From Chthonomonadales bacterium (GTDB lineage Bacteria > Armatimonadota > Chthonomonadetes > Chthonomonadales > Chthonomonadaceae): a stretch of DNA of 11,529 nt. The position numbers and the translations under genes are program-made. Location of the stretch: assembly GCA_038217285.1 (NCBI GenBank), contig JBBQPO010000202.1, positions 1-11,529 of the forward strand. The letters run 5' to 3'. A model generated the notes under the pieces. The model was given only the letters and a program-made list of their open reading frames with translations. It ran no database searches and had not been told where the DNA came from. Positions 1-8,508 of the stretch are shown here, piece after piece; position 1 is the stretch's first letter; every line of letters begins with the position of its first letter.

Positions 1-38
1 GGTGATCTAGGCCGATGCCCTCTGTTCCAGGAGTGTTC
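1..38 (+). repeat. Direct repeat copy 1 (may extend beyond the left edge)
   Basis: GGTGATCTAGGCCGATGCCCTCTGTTCCAGGAGTGTTC matches 1655..1692 at 36/38 positions. Confidence 0.9.
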
Positions 39-92
39 ATTTACCTCTCCTATCGAATAGAGTAGAAGCGCGTCGAACTGTATTCCGTGAGA

Positions 93-665
93 TTATTTCT
101 CCCACAGTAGTTCCTGAATATGTTGCGCCATGATCGCTTCCCCACCAGCATGCTCGTATTCTAGCTCTCCTTCCCAGCGGTAACGTACGTGCCCTTTCTT
201 GTCGAGCAGATAGACCGTCGGCCAGAAATGCTGTTCCCAGCGATTCCAGTTCTCGCCTTTCTGATCGAGCAGGATCGGGTATGTGATCCCGAGGCGCTTT
301 ACCCGTCGAACGACGTTGGCCGCCACCTTCTCTTCCTCGGTTTCAGGAGTATGGATACCGAGAATCACGACACCCTTCCCAGCAAACTGCTTTTGCCATC
401 TGCCGTAACTCGGCAGGTTCCTTCGACAGTTGATTCAACCGAAGGTCCAGAACTCGATCACCGTCACTTTGCCTTTGCGGGAAGCTATCTTGATCGATCT
501 GTTCTGGGGCGTGTTGAGCCACGCACCGCCGACGAGTTCCGGGGGAACCACGTCCATCTCGACGGGTTGCTGCGCCTGGGCGGCCCCGAGCGATCCGACG
601 AGCGCGAGAGCCACGCCGAATGCTCGCAGGCTCTTCGCTGGCGAGTATGGAAATCGAAATGTCAC
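93..665 (-). CDS. Exported thioredoxin-fold redoxin (TlpA/DipZ-like), probable selenoprotein with UxxC motif (Sec at codon 77, TGA 437..435), 190 aa
   Basis: ORFs 435..710 and 93..368 are in one frame, separated only by a TGA. Readthrough gives ...KGKVTVIEFWTFG-U-INCRRNLPSYGRWQKQFAGKGVVILGIHTPE...WPTVYLLDKKGHVRYRWEGE, matching the FWTFGCINC/GIHTPE/WPT motifs of DipZ-like redoxins. GTG start at 665 has AAGGAG 7 nt upstream. The N-terminus is signal-peptide-like (AFGVALALVGSLGAAQA). Confidence 0.9.
385..431 (-). promoter_or_regulatory. Candidate bacterial SECIS element of the redoxin
   Basis: The mRNA 3' of UGA has an upper stem CUGCCG/CGGCAG (416..400) with loop AGUUA starting 25 nt after UGA (G at loop position 2). 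A possible lower stem is AACUGU/GCAGUU. Confidence 0.7.
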
Positions 666-749
666 CTCTTCTCTCCTTCTCCGGTTGTTCCAGGACACCG
701 CCTTCGGCACAGAGGGACGGCCGTCTCCGCCAGTCCCGAGACTATCTCG

Positions 750-785
750 GATGATTATATACAGAACGGTCTGTATATAATCATC
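750..785. promoter_or_regulatory. Perfect 16-bp inverted repeat, probable TetR operator overlapping -10-like boxes
   Basis: GATGATTATATACAGA-ACGG-TCTGTATATAATCATC lies between the divergent redoxin and tetR genes. It contains TATAAT on both strands (776..781 plus, 759..754 minus). Confidence 0.75.
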
Positions 786-960
786 TACCCTTCTTTAGTT
801 GAGACAGTCGGGCGAAAGGTTCACGAGAATACCGCCCCGTTCTACCGCCTCGCCTTCTGGACACAGCCACTCTCTTTCCACTACAAGGCTGGATGGGAAA
901 CATAAGTTCCCAACTCCCAGAATCTCCGAAGACAGCATTCGTTCTTCCAGGCGTCGCCTC

Positions 961-989
961 CTGAAGCCACGATTTGAAAGAGGTATACT
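961..989 (+). promoter_or_regulatory. Possible sigma70-type promoter of tetR
   Basis: CTGAAG-17 nt-TATACT, ending 25 nt upstream of ATG 1015. The -35 box is weak. Confidence 0.35.
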
Positions 990-1014
990 GGGAGGAATAG
1001 AAGGGAGAGAGACT

Positions 1015-1587
1015 ATGCGCGGAGAGGCCCGTGAAAAAATATTGGAGACAGCGTGCCGACTGTTCTATGAAAGCGGCCTCCATGCGACTGGTATCGACAC
1101 GATTGTGGCACAGTCGGGTGTCACCAAGATGACGCTCTACAAACACTTTGCCTCCAAGCAGGAGTTGATTCTGGCGGTGCTGCAGCGTCGCGATGAAGAG
1201 TGGCGTTGCTGGTTTCAGCAGGCGGTGGAAGCGCGGGCGGAGCAGCCTGCAGAGCGACTGCTCGCCCTCTTCGATGCGCTCAAGAGCTGGTTCGAGCAGG
1301 AGGATTTCAAAGGGTGCGCTTTCCTGAAAGCAGCGGCGGAGTATCCCGACCCGTCGCACCCGATCCACCGTATCGTGGTGGAGCATATCCGAAGGGTCGG
1401 TGACTATGTCGTGGGACTGACCACACAGGCGTGCGCCCGGAACCCGGCGGCCCTGGCCGACGCCCTCAACCTGCTTATCATGGGCGCGATCGCCATCGCC
1501 TTTGCAGGCGATCAACGTCAGATCGTGGAGAAAGCCCATGATTCGGCACGGGTGCTTTTAGTCGCCCACGGTGTCACTCTCCGATAA
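1015..1587 (+). CDS. TetR/AcrR family transcriptional regulator, 190 aa
   Basis: N-terminal HTH AREKILETACRLFYESGLHATGIDTIVAQSGVTKMTLYKHFASKQELI, plus an FKGCAF motif typical of a Cys-containing TetR subgroup. ATG 1015 follows purine-rich GGGAGAGAG. Confidence 0.93.
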   Translation: MRGEAREKILETACRLFYESGLHATGIDTIVAQSGVTKMTLYKHFASKQELILAVLQRRDEEWRCWFQQAVEARAEQPAERLLALFDALKSWFEQEDFKGCAFLKAAAEYPDPSHPIHRIVVEHIRRVGDYVVGLTTQACARNPAALADALNLLIMGAIAIAFAGDQRQIVEKAHDSARVLLVAHGVTLR

Positions 1588-1654: not shown

Positions 1655-1692
1655 GGTGATCCAGGCCGATGCCCTCTGTTCCAGGAGTATTC
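1655..1692 (+). repeat. Direct repeat copy 2, containing the AGGAG RBS of the DUF1003 gene
   Basis: GGTGATCCAGGCCGATGCCCTCTGTTCCAGGAGTATTC, 36/38 identical to 1..38. Confidence 0.9.
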
Positions 1693-2287: not shown

Positions 2288-2671
2288 ATGAATCCACAGG
2301 ATCGGAATCCATTGGCGAACGAACGTCCAGACGTGGTCGCGATGTTCCGCGCGTTGGGAGATCCGACGCGGCTGCACATCTTCGAGTTTTTACGTTCGTG
2401 CTGCTGTCCGGTAGCCGTCGAGGAGTCCGGCGCCGTGCGGCCTGTCACCGGACCGACCGTCGGCGAGGTCTGCTGTCATGTGACAGGCGCCGAACAGATC
2501 AACTCGAAAATCTCGCATCACTTGAAGGAGCTGCGTCTGGCCGGTCTCATCACGGTCGAGCGGCGCGGCAAGAACATGATCTGCGGCGTGAACCGCGAAG
2601 CCGTCGCAGCGCTGGCCTCGTACCTGGCCCGCGAGATCTCGGACAACACAGAGAGCGGCTCTTGCTGCTGA
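2288..2671 (+). CDS. arsR: ArsR/SmtB family metalloregulator, Cys-rich
   Basis: FRALGDPTRLHIFEFL...TVGEVCC...ISHHLKELRLAGLITVERRGK winged-HTH signature. First gene of the ars operon. Confidence 0.92.
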   Translation: MNPQDRNPLANERPDVVAMFRALGDPTRLHIFEFLRSCCCPVAVEESGAVRPVTGPTVGEVCCHVTGAEQINSKISHHLKELRLAGLITVERRGKNMICGVNREAVAALASYLAREISDNTESGSCC

Positions 2672-2692
2672 CACATACGGGAGAAAATAGTA

Positions 2693-3577
2693 ATGGCAGA
2701 AACAGTCAAGCTTACGGATAGAAACGATGTACGCGATCTGGTACGCGAAAAGTACGGTGCAGCGGCCCTGACGGTCTTGAACGGCGAAGGCGCGGCGTGC
2801 TGTGGCGGCAATACGGGAGGCGGCAACGATGCGTGCTGTGGCGGCGACACTATCACAGGCGGTCTGTATGACGATGTAGAAGCCGCAAGCATCCCCGAGG
2901 CGGCGCTGCTGGCCTCCCTCGGATGCGGCAATCCTACAGCGCTGGCAGCGCTCAAGGGGGGCGAAGTCGTGCTCGATCTCGGTAGCGGGGGCGGTATCGA
3001 CGTGCTGCTCTCGGCAAGGCGGGTGGGCCCCACCGGATTTGCCTATGGTCTGGATATGACCGATGCCATGCTCGCGCTCGCCGAAAAGAACAAAGCGGAA
3101 AGCGGCGCGAAGAATGTGGCGTTCCTGAAAGGGCATATCGAAGAGGTACCCCTTCCCGACAACGCGGTCGATGTCATTATCTCCAACTGCGTGATCAACC
3201 TCTCTGCCGACAAAGACGCCGTCCTGCGCGAAGCCTTCCGCGTCCTGAAACCCGGCGGACGGTTTGCCGTCTCGGATGTGGTCGTGGAGGGGGAGCTTCC
3301 TCCGGCCGTGCGTGCCGATATGGAGGCTTATGTCGGCTGCGTGGCCGGTGCGCTGGAAGTGAACGACTATCTCGCCCGGCTCGCCAGGGCCGGCTTTGTA
3401 GACGCCTCGATCGAGCCGACCCGCCGCTATACCTTCGCAGACCTGGAAGAAGCAACCTGCTGCTCTCCCGAGGTGGCCGCACTGCCTGCGGAGGAAAAAG
3501 CCGCGCTCGATGGCCGCGTTATGGGAGCTTTCATCCGTGCCGTGAAGCCGGCGGCCTCCTGCTGCGAGCCGGCGTGA
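2693..3577 (+). CDS. arsM: Arsenite S-adenosylmethionine methyltransferase (Cys type)
   Basis: Contains SLGCGNP, VLDLGSGGGID, ISNCVINL, VLKPGGRFAVSD and YVGCVAGA, the canonical ArsM Cys motifs. RBS GGGAG. Confidence 0.95.
   Translation: MAETVKLTDRNDVRDLVREKYGAAALTVLNGEGAACCGGNTGGGNDACCGGDTITGGLYDDVEAASIPEAALLASLGCGNPTALAALKGGEVVLDLGSGGGIDVLLSARRVGPTGFAYGLDMTDAMLALAEKNKAESGAKNVAFLKGHIEEVPLPDNAVDVIISNCVINLSADKDAVLREAFRVLKPGGRFAVSDVVVEGELPPAVRADMEAYVGCVAGALEVNDYLARLARAGFVDASIEPTRRYTFADLEEATCCSPEVAALPAEEKAALDGRVMGAFIRAVKPAASCCEPA
2795..2845 (+). repeat. 15-bp direct repeat within arsM encoding ACCGG twice
   Basis: GCGTGCTGTGGCGGC at 2795..2809 and 2831..2845. Confidence 0.85.
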
Positions 3578-4341
3578 AGCCCTTCCTCGAAGCGAAGAGG
3601 GTTCCTGTGGACGACGGCATGATGCGCCGCTATACGGCGGAGTTTGTCGGCACATTCGGCATCGTGTTCGCTCCTGTGGCGCTCTCCGCCACAGGCAGCC
3701 TGCACGGCAGCGAAAGCGGACTGATGGCGGCCGCCTGGGTTTCTGGGCTCGCCGTGCTCGCGATGATCTACGCGCTCGGTCCTATCTCTGCGGCCCATTT
3801 CAACCCGGCCGTGACTCTGGGTTTCGCGCTCGCGGGGCGGTTCCCGTGGCGCTACGTTGTGCCCTACTGGATCGCGGAGTTCCTCGGCGGCATCGCTGCA
3901 GCGGCCCTGGCAGCCCTGCTCTTCGGCGGTGGGCATGGGGTCCATATTCCCGCCAACGGCCTGCTTGTTCGCGCCGTGGCGGTCGAGGCCGTGCTGACCT
4001 TCTTCCTGATGCTGGTCGTCATCGCGGTTGCGACCGATAAGCGGGCGAACGGCGCGATCCCCGGTCTCGCCATCGGGCTCACCGTCGTCTTCGACGTCCT
4101 GATCGGCGGTCCGGTCACGGGCGGCTCGATGAACCCGGCGCGCTCCCTTGGCCCCGCCCTTTTCGGCGGCCCAGCCGCGCTTGCCGTCTACTGGGTCTAC
4201 GTCGTCGGTCCTGTCCTGGGAGCGGTAGTGGCAGCCTGGCTCTACGAGCACATTCGTGGCGGCGAGCACCACGCACAGGGCGCGCCAAACGACATTTACG
4301 CAGCGCTGCAAGAGATCGAAGAGAAGGCCCACGAGGCGTAA
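3574..4341 (+). CDS. MIP family aquaporin/aquaglyceroporin, probable arsenical channel
   Basis: AEFVGTF, AHFNPAVT and GGSMNPARS (two NPA motifs) with hydrophobic helices. GTGA overlap with the arsM stop; the start could instead be 3607 or 3619. Confidence 0.93.
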   Translation: MKPFLEAKRVPVDDGMMRRYTAEFVGTFGIVFAPVALSATGSLHGSESGLMAAAWVSGLAVLAMIYALGPISAAHFNPAVTLGFALAGRFPWRYVVPYWIAEFLGGIAAAALAALLFGGGHGVHIPANGLLVRAVAVEAVLTFFLMLVVIAVATDKRANGAIPGLAIGLTVVFDVLIGGPVTGGSMNPARSLGPALFGGPAALAVYWVYVVGPVLGAVVAAWLYEHIRGGEHHAQGAPNDIYAALQEIEEKAHEA

Positions 4342-4374: not shown

Positions 4375-4829
4375 ATGGCAACACGCATCGCCATTTTTTC
4401 GGACATCCACGCCAACCTACCTGCCATGGAGGTTACAGCCCGGCATATTCAGCAGGGCGGCTATGACGGCGTCTACTGTCTCGGCGATGTGGGCGGATAC
4501 GCGGCGCAACCAAACGAGGTTCAACAGCTCCTTATGGGAATGGGCTGCCCGACCGTGATGGGCAACTACGACGAAAGCGTTGGGTTCGAGAAAGACGACT
4601 GTGGCTGCCTCTACATCAAGCCCTTCGACATCGAGATGAGCAATATCTCGTTTCTCTGGACCCGCGCGCAGGCTACTGTGTCCTGACGCTCGACGGTCAG
4701 AATGTCAGCGCCGAGCAGGTCCGCCTGCCCTACCCGGTTGAGACCGCCTGCGAACGCCTGCTCGCGGCCGGCCTTCCCACCTACTTCGCCGACTATCTCC
4801 GAAAAGCCGGCAACGTTACACCAGCCTGA
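4375..4829 (+). pseudogene. Calcineurin-like metallophosphoesterase with internal deletion and frameshift
   Basis: The N-terminal part (4375..4670) has SDIHAN, CLGDVGGY and MGNYD. A different frame at 4659..4829 reads DPRAGYCVLTLDGQNVSAEQVRLPYPVETACERLLAAGLPTYFADYLRKAGNVTPA*, the typical family C-terminus. The middle HGSP, GHTH and GSVG motifs are missing. Confidence 0.85.
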
Positions 4830-4951
4830 GTAGACGTCAACACCGGTACGTTCTCGCCTGCCGCACCTACGAGACACCGACAGGCAGAGGCGGCGCTCCT
4901 CCCGAAGAGGCGGTTCGCGCCGCGATCCGGCCTGCGGTCTGACCTGTTCTG

Positions 4952-6739
4952 CTACGGAACGCGGGGGACGGAGAGATACGTCGTGTAACTTTCGGCCTTC
5001 ACCTTGTAGAACGGCAGAAAGGTCATCGTATTATGGTGCGTGTGGAACGTAGGAAGCCCGCCGGGGTGCTTTACAACGTCCACACCAGCTTTGCCTCCAG
5101 GAACCGAAACAGGCTTGTCGGAGAGAGCTACCAGGAGCAGTGGCCCGTAGAGCAGCGCCTGGCGGTCCGGCGTCTCGGAGGCGATGGCCTCGGAGTGCAG
5201 CGCCATCGGGAACGTGACCTGAAGCGTATCTCCCTCGTGCCATAACCGCTCCACTTCGAGGAACGTCCCCGGCACGGCCTTTACCTGCGTGACTTTGCCT
5301 CTGATTTTAACGGTTACAGGCTTCGCTGTCCAGCCAGGGACGCGCACATGCAGCGCAAAGCGCACAGGCTTTTGGGAATGCACCGTCAGCGTCGTCGTAT
5401 CTGTCTCCGGGTAGAGCGTGGTCTGCTCGACCGTGACAGCCTGCGGCCCCTCCTTCCAGTGCACCTGCGAAGGTGTGAAGAGGTTGACGTAGAGGCCGTG
5501 CGCAGCGTGGAAATAGATGTCGAGCGGATAGTCTGCGGTGATCTGTGCATACGTCCCCGAACAGCAGGGCCAGGCCGCGCCGAAGTAGGCTTTCTTGGTT
5601 CCGGAGCGATAGTTCGAATAGTAGAAGGTCTTGCCGTCCGGCTGCATGGGAAGCGTCGCGAGCATACCGTTGAAGAGGACGCGTTCCATGTTGTCGCCGT
5701 ATTTGGCGTCTCCGGTAAACCGCAGCAGATAGCGGTCGAGGTTGACGTTGGCGTAGGAGCCGCATGGCGTCTCGAAGTGGTTGTCGACGCTCTCGATGGA
5801 TTCTGCGAGCTTCCCCTGCCCCGGTGTCACGAACCGCTCGAGTGGCCCCCATCCGCCCGAAGCGTACATCTGCGTGGTGGTAAGGAACGTCCAGGCGTTC
5901 TCTATCGCCTTGAAGTACTTTTCATCGCCTGTCACTTCATAGGCTTTGGCCGCTGACAACAGGGTGTTGACATGGCTGTAGGCGTGATGGTCCGGTGTAA
6001 ACGCATTGATGCCATTTGCGAAGGGGTCGTAGTACTCCTTGCTGTAGTCGTACTCTTTCGCCATATCGAGATACCGCGGATCTTGCGTAAGCGCATAGCA
6101 GTTGTAGAGATTTTCGGGCAGCGTGTACCATTCGTCTCGTCGGCGCGGCAGGTTCTTCACCGCCCAGTCGGTCATCTGCTTGAGAACGACGAGTCCCTCC
6201 GCATTGCCGGTCAGCGTATAAGCGTCCCGCATCCCGATGCAGTTCTTATCGTAGAGGTAGTTCGGCCACTCCCGGAAGACCTTCTCGGACGAGTAGAAAT
6301 AGCCGTCTGGCGCTAAGGTTTCGTGGAAACCGTGCACCAGTCGGGCGACCTTCTCCTTATACCGCACATCTCCCGTATTGGCGTACATCCGGGCCAGGGC
6401 GGAGACATACTGCCCGAAAGGATGCGCTCCGGCGAAGCCGTCCGGATCGTACCAACCGCCCATCGGTTTGCCGGGCGCGGGAAGTCCGGCGCGTTTGCGG
6501 AAGCCGTTGAGCAGATTGTCCTCCGACAGCGATAGAAAGAAGTCGCGCGCTTCCAGGGCCTGGGTTCCCAGAGGGCCGCCTTTCAGAGTGACGTCCTGAT
6601 AGCCAAAGGGCTGCACGAGGCCCGAAGATCGGTGTGCCTCCAGAGCGACTGCCTTCTGGGCCGGGGCGCTCTGCTGGCAGAAGAGCCCTCCAGCAAGTAC
6701 AAGCAGGGCGCAAAGTCCTACTCCAGTCAACTTCTTCAT
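4952..6739 (-). CDS. Secreted glycoside hydrolase, GH127/GH146 (beta-L-arabinofuranosidase-like, DUF1680), 595 aa
   Basis: Signal peptide, then GGW...GQYVSALA, HAYSHV, YASGG, ETPCGSY, YGDNMER.LFN, WPCCSGT, LYVNLF, QTTLYP, RVPGW and YGPLLL motifs. Confidence 0.88.
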   Translation of the reverse strand: MKKLTGVGLCALLVLAGGLFCQQSAPAQKAVALEAHRSSGLVQPFGYQDVTLKGGPLGTQALEARDFFLSLSEDNLLNGFRKRAGLPAPGKPMGGWYDPDGFAGAHPFGQYVSALARMYANTGDVRYKEKVARLVHGFHETLAPDGYFYSSEKVFREWPNYLYDKNCIGMRDAYTLTGNAEGLVVLKQMTDWAVKNLPRRRDEWYTLPENLYNCYALTQDPRYLDMAKEYDYSKEYYDPFANGINAFTPDHHAYSHVNTLLSAAKAYEVTGDEKYFKAIENAWTFLTTTQMYASGGWGPLERFVTPGQGKLAESIESVDNHFETPCGSYANVNLDRYLLRFTGDAKYGDNMERVLFNGMLATLPMQPDGKTFYYSNYRSGTKKAYFGAAWPCCSGTYAQITADYPLDIYFHAAHGLYVNLFTPSQVHWKEGPQAVTVEQTTLYPETDTTTLTVHSQKPVRFALHVRVPGWTAKPVTVKIRGKVTQVKAVPGTFLEVERLWHEGDTLQVTFPMALHSEAIASETPDRQALLYGPLLLVALSDKPVSVPGGKAGVDVVKHPGGLPTFHTHHNTMTFLPFYKVKAESYTTYLSVPRVP

Positions 6740-7494
6740 CGATTTACTCTCTTTCCGGTGGTCTTACGTGCGACCACTTCCGCAACCATTACTTTTGGGT
6801 CTGTGGTTCTGGCGTTGCGCAATGCGCGAAGCAAGACCACCTCGCCAAACCCGGCGGCCCGAAACTCCTCAAGGAAAGCCCCGCTCTCCTTTGCGCCGGC
6901 AATTCAAGTGAACCAGTCAGCCGCGCTGTTTTGGCTTTCCGCAGGCAAGGGGCCGGTCAAGACAAGCTCCGCCGCATAGACAGATCCCCCTGTTTTGAGA
7001 ACGCGCGACAACTCAGAAAATATCTGCTCCCGGTAGGGATTCAGGTTGAAAATGCCGTTGATGAGGGCGACATCAATACTCGCGTCTTTGATCGGCAACT
7101 GTTCCGCGTCTGTTAGATATACGTTGACATTCGCAGCCCGCATCTCGGCTGCGGCCAGTCGGGCGCGGCCCGCCATCTCCGCACTAAAATCGATGGCGAT
7201 CACCTTGCCCTGCTCTCCGGTGCGTCTGGCCGCAATGAGCGTGTCCAGACCTGCCCCTGCGCCCAGGTCAAGAACGGTCGCTCCTGCCGGTATCCTGGCA
7301 AAGAGACTCACATTCGAGATACCGCAAAATCCTTCTACCGATGTGGCTGGGATCGTATCGAGCAAAGTAGACGGATAGCCTAAATCCTCCGCCAGGGCCC
7401 GTCCGGTGGGAAAAGGCAAATGGCGCGCGGTCTGCTGTGCGATCGAGGAATAGACATCTCTTACTCCGTCGCGGAGTGCGGTTGTGCCGTTCAT
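6736..7494 (-). CDS. ArsM-like class I SAM methyltransferase, probable selenoprotein (Sec at codon 197, TGA 6906..6904), 252 aa
   Basis: ATG 7494 with AGGAAGG RBS. Motifs FPTGRALAEDLGY, VLDLGAGAGLD, IDFSAEM, INGIFNL and VLKTGG. After DWFT-TGA the frame continues IAGAKESGAFLEEFRAAGFGEVVLLRALRNARTTDPKVMVAEVVARKTTGKRVNR*, homologous to the ArsM segment GCVAGALEVNDYLARLARAGF. The terminal TGA overlaps the GH127 ATG (ATGA). Confidence 0.88.
6871..6891 (-). promoter_or_regulatory. Candidate bacterial SECIS element of the methyltransferase
   Basis: The mRNA hairpin AAGGAGAGC-GGG-GCUUUCCUU (9 bp, one G-U) begins after 12 nt 3' of the UGA. The G-containing apical loop is at +22..24. Confidence 0.72.
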
Positions 7495-7590: not shown

Positions 7591-8508
7591 ATGACAGAGA
7601 AATACAACCTTTACCCGCTTCATATCTTTCAGCTCGTGGCACGGCATAGCAGCGTCACCGGCGCTGCACAGGAGCTCTGCATCAGTCAACCTGCTGTCTC
7701 GTCTCACCTTAAAGCGCTGGAAGCCAGATACAAAGAGGCGCTTTTTGAGCGGACGCCGCGCGGTATGCTGCTCACGCCTGCCGGTGCGGCGGTCGCCGAG
7801 CACGCGAGCCGCATCTTTGCGCTCCTGGAAGAGATGGAAGCAGTGGTGAACGCCACACGCGGAGAGGTCAAGGGGATTGTGACCATGGCCGCCTCCAGTA
7901 CTCCTGGCGCCTACCTTGTTCCCCGGCTCCTGCGACGCTTTCAGGACCGCTATCCCGACGTGCAAGCGACACTCCTCGTCGGAGACAGCAGGGAGGTGCT
8001 TTCCTGGCTGCGAGATTACCATGCAGCGCTCGGTGTCGTCGGCGAAACGGACATGGAAGACGGACTGATCCGGGAGGAGATCGCGCAGGATGAACTGCGA
8101 CTCATGACAGCGGCGACGGACGATCTGTGTCGGAGGGAAGAGATCAAGGCGGAGCATCTTTACGGGCGTACGCTGTTCCTGCGGGAACCCGGCTCCAGTA
8201 CACGTGCCGGGGCGCAAACGCTCCTGTATGATTGGCAGAAAGACTTTGCACGGATCGTCGAACAGCACAGCATAGAAGCCATCAAGCAACAGGTCATCGC
8301 CGGGCTAGGCGTTGCCGTTCTCTCCTCCTGGGCTACCGAACTTGAAGAAAAGGCGGGTCTGCTCTGCCCTGTCCGGGATACCCGGTTTTGGCAGAGGCGT
8401 AAGTTTTACCTGGTGCGCCGCGCGGATCGCCCACTCCTCGGCGGAGCGGCGGCGCTCTGGGACTGTCTGGCCTCCTGCCCGCGTACATCCGGTGGTAGCC
8501 CTCCCTAG
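7591..8508 (+). CDS. LysR family transcriptional regulator (CysL/YeiE-like)
   Basis: HTH SVTGAAQELCISQPAVSSHLKALE...LFER...LTPAG. The effector domain has ASSTPGAYLVP, GDS and REPGSSTR. RBS TAAGGA. Confidence 0.93.
   Translation: MTEKYNLYPLHIFQLVARHSSVTGAAQELCISQPAVSSHLKALEARYKEALFERTPRGMLLTPAGAAVAEHASRIFALLEEMEAVVNATRGEVKGIVTMAASSTPGAYLVPRLLRRFQDRYPDVQATLLVGDSREVLSWLRDYHAALGVVGETDMEDGLIREEIAQDELRLMTAATDDLCRREEIKAEHLYGRTLFLREPGSSTRAGAQTLLYDWQKDFARIVEQHSIEAIKQQVIAGLGVAVLSSWATELEEKAGLLCPVRDTRFWQRRKFYLVRRADRPLLGGAAALWDCLASCPRTSGGSPP

Follow-up and report, generated by a model that had tools for sequence, protein, structure and literature searches.

A predicted exported UxxC redoxin with an in-frame UGA in a Chthonomonadales contig, and its cysteine and UGA relatives

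The stretch of DNA analysed here, referred to below as the window, comprises 11,529 nucleotides (nt), positions 1 to 11,529 of contig JBBQPO010000202.1 in assembly GCA_038217285.1, from a Chthonomonadales bacterium of the phylum Armatimonadota. Its main subject is a redoxin gene on the minus strand, 665..93, whose frame contains one internal TGA. An earlier note, made from the sequence of the window without database searches, had described this gene as an exported redoxin with selenocysteine (Sec) in a UxxC motif, split into two open reading frames (ORFs) by the gene caller. We assessed the gene through its frame, its fold, its relatives in other genomes, the hairpin that follows the UGA and its neighbourhood. 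The features of the redoxin gene are as follows, SECIS standing for selenocysteine insertion sequence.

665..93, minus strand: predicted redoxin selenoprotein gene, 190 codons, GTG start 665..663, TAA stop 95..93
673..678, minus strand: AAGGAG, a motif resembling a ribosome-binding site, 7 nt 5' of the GTG start (read from the sequence)
573..665, minus strand: signal-peptide-like N-terminus, residues 1-31, with A-Q-A (29-31) before Q32 (by inspection)
435..437, minus strand: in-frame UGA, residue 77, position 1 of the U-I-N-C redox motif (translation and alignment of relatives)
426..428, minus strand: TGT codon, Cys80, second (resolving) residue of UxxC (translation)
400..416, minus strand: SECIS-type hairpin, CUGCCG (416..411), loop AGUUA (410..406), CGGCAG (405..400) (fold and model test)

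The redoxin gene, its frame and its fold

The minus-strand segment 665..93 forms a single frame of 190 codons in which TGA 437..435 is the sole in-frame stop, and the protein around it reads VTVIEFWTFG-U-INCRRNLPSYGRWQK. The earlier note had placed this TGA at the first Cys of a CxxC motif (FWTFG-TGA-ATC-AAC-TGT) and had described a frame open as far as TAA 95..93; both were found as described. Under translation table 11 the frame is split into ORFs 435..710 and 93..368. The note's claim that a caller had cut the gene in two held for the first half, P0249 in the protein database being the window's own N-terminal ORF of 76 residues, but the C-terminal ORF was not among the listed matches. We preferred the start at 665 to the ORF-maximal start at 710 because AAGGAG, a putative ribosome-binding site, lies 7 nt upstream and because the homologs begin, with M-x-x-F-R-F, at the place equivalent to GTG 665. 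N-terminal fragments from other contigs are exactly as long as P0249 in 12 of 20 cases.

The signal-peptide-like N-terminus described in the note was likewise seen by inspection: residues 1-31 contain the basic residues R4, K11 and R14, a 13-residue hydrophobic core (A15-G27) and the A-Q-A triplet. This region has no Cys, and therefore no lipobox, and no RR motif. The same N-terminal layout is present in the homologs, and the AlphaFold model leaves residues 1-33 unstructured, with a low predicted local distance difference test score (pLDDT). From these sequence features alone, export of the redoxin is predicted.

The best Pfam family was AhpC-TSA (PF00578; 50.2 bits, cut-off 26), ahead of Redoxin (PF08534; 37.0 bits, cut-off 26.6) and Thioredoxin_8 (PF13905; 27.1 bits, cut-off 27). 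The nearest NCBIfam names all remained below their cut-offs, namely StoA (54.8 against 210 bits), ResA (52.7 against 170), DsbE (32.7 against 123) and TlpA (26.5 against 230), so far below that the redoxin is related to these families and a member of none. In an AlphaFold model based on a 34-sequence alignment (pLDDT 88.7; predicted template modelling score 0.80), residue 77 sits directly behind strand 67-73, where helix 78-93 begins, the position classically taken by the nucleophilic Cys. In CxxC reductases the N-terminal Cys is the nucleophile. C80 is unchanged throughout the 34-sequence alignment, and the invariant pair W148-P149 stands directly before strand 150-154, where P149 is probably the cis-proline of the thioredoxin fold.

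The closest solved structure was the C-terminal thioredoxin-like domain of Mycobacterium tuberculosis DipZ (2hyx), matched by sequence over residues 37-171 with an E-value of 7.7e-34 and also ranked first by Foldseek (2e-16). Foldseek otherwise returned the same proteins as the sequence search, in which DipZ was followed by the thioredoxin-like domains of NHLRC2 and SOQ1 and then by ResA and TlpA. The window redoxin shares with DipZ (2hyx, 5cyy) the W-x-x-x-C-I-N-C-x-R motif and an H-T-P-E block, but DipZ has Cys where the redoxin has UGA, and its solved chains, at 352-360 residues, comprise more than this domain. In full-length DipZ the thioredoxin-like domain is fused to a CcdA/DsbD-type membrane domain, whereas the window redoxin stands alone behind its signal-peptide-like N-terminus.

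ResA, StoA, TlpA and DsbE/CcmG, which are exported or membrane-anchored CxxC reductases, match structurally with template modelling (TM) scores of 0.6-0.67 at about 20% identity; in contrast to these, no cytochrome c or copper-centre maturation genes lie near the redoxin, and other neighbours recur. The N-terminal thioredoxin-like domain of Neisseria PilB/MsrAB (2jzr, 2fy6) gave a weak match (E 8e-4; NCBIfam PRK14018 over residues 39-165), and some relatives of the redoxin have an MsrB fusion with this order of domains (L043, P0063), although the window redoxin itself has no Msr domain. Taken together, the fold, the motif and the kinship with DipZ, ResA and TlpA point to a reductase acting outside the cytoplasm.

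A peroxiredoxin proper (AhpC/TSA peroxidase) was considered and rejected. Such enzymes have the active site P-x-x-x-T/S-x-x-C, whereas the redoxin reads V-I-E-F-W-T-F-G-U, with T74 three residues before U77 but no proline four residues before T74. The second redox residue of the window protein lies at +3, as in reductases.

Among described selenoproteins, the redoxin falls among the Prx-like thiol:disulfide oxidoreductases (PF00578, UxxC/UxxU) under the naming rule of the reviews, which goes by domain and Sec motif. It shares with that class PF00578, a UxxC motif with Sec first and a thioredoxin-like fold, and the class is graded "predicted with high confidence" (PMC13188914, PMC9312934). Thiol-disulfide isomerase-like selenoproteins (cd02966/PF13905, UxxC) have the TlpA/ResA-type fold and UxxC in common with the redoxin, its PF13905 match being marginal, and a UGC-containing TlpA family selenoprotein differs in its motif, UGC against U-I-N-C.

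The UGA codon and its hairpin among relatives

Related loci were gathered by a scan of one genome per species, which yielded 80. At the codon aligned with the redoxin UGA, TGC or TGT is present in 74 of the 80 loci and TGA in six; because one of the two scan patterns began with this Cys itself, TGA forms were catchable by the other pattern alone and are under-counted. The best database homologs listed have Cys at the Sec position in 119 of 120 cases. The pairing of Cys with UGA at a single aligned position, which the earlier note had put forward as a means of checking its reading, is therefore borne out by both sets. The remaining listed protein, P0015 (6 member sequences), is a full-length homolog known as a protein record alone; it reads FWTFGWINC, and its W at this position is probably a TGA translated under another code.

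Three of the TGA forms belong to metagenome-assembled genomes (MAGs) of Chthonomonadales or Chthonomonadaceae (L001, L002 and L006), and the other three to a MAG labelled Actinomycetota (L022), a member of the Planctomycetota (L070) and a member of the Gemmataceae (L074). In the TGA-form genes the reading frame is kept and coding similarity is present on both sides of the TGA. A short-protein search returned 69 matches, of which 21 end exactly at FWTF[GSD], one being the window's own and 20 coming from other contigs, while at least 31 start downstream of the redox motif. A TGA unique to this assembly and lacking SECIS conservation, one of the findings that the note had named as refuting its reading, did not arise.

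In a quick maximum-likelihood tree of 81 domains (LG+G4, all rows kept, branch support from the Shimodaira-Hasegawa-like approximate likelihood ratio test only), the TGA state needs at least four changes. The window redoxin clusters with L001 and L002 (support 95), and its nearest relatives are Chthonomonadales of the phylum Armatimonadota. The TGA form of the Actinomycetota-labelled MAG (L022, 10001..10525) has a hairpin identical to the Chthonomonadales ones and the Chthonomonadaceae Cys form L011 as its tree partner, a placement that points to gene transfer or a binning error.

The hairpin downstream of the redoxin UGA begins 18 nt past that codon and its loop 24 nt past it. The stem has 6 base pairs (bp), the loop is 5 nt long with G at its second position, and the fold energy is -10.2 kcal/mol for a 30-nt context (RNAfold) and -8.7 kcal/mol for the bare hairpin. 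The bacterial SECIS (bSECIS) model, as given in the Figure 2 legend of PMC13188914, limits the loop to 3-9 nt and the stem to 4-16 bp and requires G in loop positions 1-2, a spacing of 16-37 nt from the UGA and a minimum free energy of -7.5 kcal/mol or lower. We applied this model in a contiguous-stem implementation of our own, and six of the seven TGA genes (window included) passed, against one of the 74 Cys genes. All seven TGA genes contain a small hairpin whose loop starts 24-26 nt past the UGA and carries GU. In the window this hairpin is CUGCCG-AGUUA-CGGCAG, the SECIS-like element singled out in the earlier note.

This element is identical in the window, L001, L002, L006 and L022, with the loop at 24 nt in each. 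L070 reads UCCCUG-GUA-CAGGGA and L074 reads ACCCGUG-GUA-CGCGGGU, the loop starting 26 nt past the UGA in both. Between these two, two stem pairs are altered on both sides, a covariation limited to this one comparison, and the planctomycete hairpins are one column off at the loop centre. The mean local fold energy was -10.1 kcal/mol in TGA genes against -5.7 kcal/mol in Cys genes (Mann-Whitney p = 1.8e-4).

The five genes with the identical hairpin encode proteins that are 55-75% identical, and within the six hairpin codons they use the same codon in 56 of 56 same-residue pairs, compared with 442 of 844 elsewhere in the gene; codon pairs are not independent, and the Fisher p-value is therefore merely indicative. 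This freezing of synonymous sites is the strongest point for the hairpin. The hairpin also shapes the encoded protein: TGA forms read S-Y-G-R/S-W or W-Y-R/A-D/G-W in this region, and most Cys forms read x-Y-A/D/N-R/K-W. Many of the Cys forms among L003-L080 already have a CUGCC...UGGCAG complement at codons +7 to +15 counted from the Cys codon, provided by Leu-Pro and Trp-Gln codons. The TGA forms contain a second arm on the 3' side, CGGCAG, which is encoded by Gly-Arg codons and placed closer in. Given the pre-existing CUGCC complement, this suggests that a SECIS could arise from few codon changes.

A second UGA gene and the reading of the codon

A second gene of the window contains an in-frame TGA, and the features concerned are listed here together with the divergent regulator gene.

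7494..6736, minus strand: ArsM-like S-adenosylmethionine methyltransferase, candidate selenoprotein; TGA 6906..6904 in DWFT-U-IAG; true stop TGA 6738..6736
6891..6871, minus strand: hairpin after the methyltransferase UGA; 9-bp stem, loop GGG, loop 21 nt past the UGA, -10.2 kcal/mol
7591..8508, plus strand: LysR-family regulator, divergent from the methyltransferase; best NCBIfam match LysR_Sec_metab, 191.9 bits (cut-off of 250 not reached)

The best NCBIfam matches of the methyltransferase are arsenite-methyltransferase selenoprotein models and PRK11873. Among its listed homologs, 115 of 120 end with W-[FLY]-x just before the UGA codon, three read W through the UGA and continue into a conserved tail, and none shows Cys; the caller's own entry, P0123, is truncated at 196 residues. 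At the place corresponding to this UGA, the canonical ArsM of the window (2693..3577) reads Y-V-G-C-V-A-G. Arsenite methyltransferase with a UxxG motif is on the list of known selenoproteins (PMC13188914), and LysR_Sec_metab is the NCBIfam family of selenium-metabolism-associated LysR regulators. An Rfam scan of the whole window, with E-values up to 1, gave no match at either hairpin. Its sole match, PreQ1-III at 4689..4791, was sub-threshold (22.1 against 63 bits) and was taken as chance.

TGA serves as a normal stop in 8 of the 14 window genes, and there is therefore no genome-wide reassignment of UGA. An ATGA overlap at 6736..6739 illustrates both uses of the codon: the methyltransferase stop TGA 6738..6736 shares bases with ATG 6739..6737 of a GH127 beta-L-arabinofuranosidase gene (4952..6739), and the same mRNA would consequently use one UGA as Sec and another as a stop. 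With two independent genes that have TGA at a redox Cys within 7 kilobases (kb), this organism is likely to decode Sec. The suggestion in the earlier note that the redoxin lends independent support to UGA recoding proved reasonable, the methyltransferase having its TGA at the ArsM Cys position and a family that mostly ends there.

We consider it likely that the minus-strand gene 665..93 specifies a single thioredoxin-fold thiol-disulfide oxidoreductase of 190 residues in which UGA codon 77 is read as Sec, giving a U-I-N-C centre; Sec as the inserted residue, export and substrate are the parts that we infer. The hairpin 24 nt downstream would act as a bacterial SECIS, bringing SelB and its Sec-tRNA(Sec) to the ribosome where the UGA is read. 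The predicted signal peptide would take the protein across the cytoplasmic membrane, where it may be cleaved after A-Q-A or kept as a membrane anchor. Outside the cytoplasm, the exposed nucleophile Sec77 would attack a substrate disulfide or sulfenic acid, and Cys80 would resolve the selenenylsulfide. The most likely job of such a protein would be the supply of electrons to repair or redox enzymes of the envelope, since relatives are fused to MsrB or adjoin cytochrome b561 and molybdopterin oxidoreductase genes. The note's description of an extracytoplasmic Sec thiol-disulfide oxidoreductase accordingly finds support in the Cys/UGA pairing, the recurring UGA, the conserved hairpin and the fold, with Sec and export as its predicted elements.

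Several observations weigh against this interpretation. No tRNA-Sec, SelA, SelB or SelD is present within the 11.5-kb window, ARAGORN found no tRNA-Sec in the flanks of the 80 related loci, and the 87 long ORFs (230 residues or more) scanned in the six TGA loci include neither SelA nor SelB nor SelD (87 of 98, the 11 omitted being those overlapping the redoxin and its already scanned neighbours). This blank is uninformative, the stretches being too short to count against Sec use. On the side of the hairpin, that of L070 scores -7.3 kcal/mol by the contiguous-stem measure and just misses the -7.5 limit, and in 15 of the 74 Cys genes the local fold is as good as or better than that of the weakest TGA gene, owing to a looser pairing, CUGCC...GGCAG, that Leu-Pro and Trp-Gln codons provide. 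Within the window, 19 of 246 TGA trinucleotides pass our version of the bSECIS model, and a 66-nt fold around the redoxin UGA does not exceed shuffled sequence in stability (z = -0.65), which places the signal in hairpin geometry rather than in overall stability. A single hairpin is thus weak evidence by itself, and its strength comes from the other genomes.

The one serious alternative concerns the inserted residue and not the recoding. A tRNA termed tRNA-ReC (SelC*) reads UGA as Cys when a SECIS follows, and it accompanies canonical SelC in five of five Armatimonadota genomes with UXXU hydrogenases (PMC13582414). The nearest relatives of the window belong to this same phylum. SelB could then decode the UGA and its hairpin partly or wholly with such a Cys-accepting tRNA, yielding a CxxC redoxin or a selenium-dependent mixture of Sec and Cys; the UGA and the hairpin fit Cys as well as they fit Sec, and the sequence alone cannot tell Sec, Cys and a mixture apart. 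Against this, canonical SelC is also present in those genomes (PMC13582414), and the methyltransferase family, ending at its UGA in nearly all listed members, shows what is expected of an established selenoprotein family (arsenite methyltransferase, UxxG; PMC13188914). We regard this alternative as quite unlikely. A related and also rather unlikely possibility is a facultative site that would receive Sec through tRNA-Sec in the presence of selenium and Cys through SelB-dependent tRNA-ReC in its absence. If so, the cell would never be without a functional envelope reductase and would have an improved one when selenium is present, and the Cys/Sec switches on the tree, at least four in number, would reflect how cheaply the hairpin is made, one route being a change of Ala-Arg codons to Gly-Arg, by which the pre-existing Leu-Pro CUGCC would gain a new 3' arm.

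Readings in which the codon is not specifically recoded are each contradicted by the sequence data. That the gene is broken, with the TGA a nonsense mutation or sequencing error and the two ORFs its remnants, would agree with the caller's ending of P0249 at the TGA, and the window itself holds no proof of translation past that point; it is nevertheless highly improbable, as the same TGA stands at the same codon in the six other loci, another 20 ORFs in the database, on other contigs, break off at that residue, downstream of the TGA the frame is maintained and the protein is conserved at the 55-75% level, the hairpin codons are frozen, and the TGA state needs repeated changes on the tree. We attach as little probability to normal termination at the UGA, with a 76-residue exported peptide as the product and the downstream part expressed separately or never. 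UGA works efficiently as a stop at other places in the window, but the first 76 residues amount to a signal peptide, a linker and one strand, without the redox centre, and the downstream part lacks a conserved start or ribosome-binding site, callers placing its start differently in different records. A genome-wide reassignment of TGA to an ordinary amino acid, Trp or Gly, has a negligible chance of being correct. The W on record at the UGA position in P0015 and in three methyltransferase homologs would fit it, but, judged from the protein records, is most simply the product of an alternative code chosen by the caller. More than half of the window genes end in TGA, the methyltransferase itself included, where the TGA overlaps the ATG of the next gene; read-through of the window's TGA stops adds unconvincing tails, and an internal TGA occurs in two family-supported genes only, in both at the redox Cys.

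Genomic neighbourhood and significance

Neighbour ORFs of the redoxin and its relatives were clustered within ±3.5 kb in 81 neighbourhoods. Cytochrome b561 (PF01292) is present in 18 of these and molybdopterin oxidoreductase (PF00174) in 17, usually directly downstream, and such neighbours accompany three of the six TGA loci (L006, L022 and L074). An extracytoplasmic function (ECF) sigma factor is found in 31 of the 81 neighbourhoods and a zf-HC2 anti-sigma factor in 14. Together with the MsrB fusions of L043 and P0063, these neighbours suggest that the redoxin may serve as an electron donor in the repair of oxidative damage in the envelope. In the window, the gene downstream of the redoxin starts at 39..37 (minus strand) and runs off the end.

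Upstream, a perfect 36-nt palindrome (785..750; arms of 16 nt around a centre of 4 nt) is located between the redoxin start at 665 and a divergent TetR gene. The TetR ORF spans 799..1587, with a likely start near 1015 and a TetR_N domain from ORF residue 81. The arrangement suggests that the palindrome is a candidate operator and that TetR may repress locally. The redoxin and TetR segment is bracketed by a direct repeat of 38 nt, 95% identical, at 1..38 and 1655..1692; the left copy touches the window edge and may be longer, and the right copy overlaps the start of a DUF1003 ORF.

Further into the window, an arsenic cluster occupies 2288..4341 on the plus strand and consists of ArsR (2288..2671, ending S-G-S-C-C), the canonical ArsM (2693..3577; PRK11873, 338.9 bits) and an MIP-family channel (3574..4341). 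A tblastx comparison of the window with the 80 loci found no shared gene order except in L075, an Armatimonadetes MAG in which an ArsR-ArsM-MIP cluster lies about 1.6 kb from a Cys-form redoxin. With one locus of 80, the link between redoxin and arsenic genes is weak. Next to this cluster, a metallophosphoesterase (YfcE-like) gene at 4375..4830 (plus strand) looks broken: it encodes 103 residues before a TGA, a C-terminal-looking stretch, GYCVLTLDGQNV...YLRKAG, lies in another frame, and the middle is seemingly missing.

Among predicted bacterial selenoproteins, thioredoxin-fold proteins with UxxC are the most frequent kind (PMC1088965). Sec-containing redoxins of this type have long been known from computation, and the general picture is unchanged by the present gene. 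In open-access text, supplements aside, we found no paper naming a DipZ-type exported Sec subfamily or its occurrence in Chthonomonadales, and little on selenoproteins in Armatimonadota, one of the papers found dealing with Sec hydrogenases. The relevant passages of the reviews that treat Prx-like selenoproteins (PMC13188914, PMC9312934) do not mention a DipZ-like subfamily. The terms "signal peptide", "periplasm" and "Armatimonad" do not occur in the available portion of PMC13188914, nor do Armatimonad, Planctomycet and disulfide in that of the BSepDB paper.

These results bear on gene annotation as well as on selenoprotein biology. Standard gene calling splits or truncates two genes of this window, and their relatives in public data are likewise cut, as the 20 other redoxin fragments and 115 of the 120 listed methyltransferase entries demonstrate. 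On the present sequence evidence, selenoproteins would gain an exported DipZ-type reductase, in Chthonomonadales-like Armatimonadota and in Planctomycetota. With Cys and Sec forms in close relatives and a very short, well-defined SECIS, the family may offer a convenient system in which to study the benefit of Sec to an envelope reductase and the origin of a SECIS within a coding sequence.

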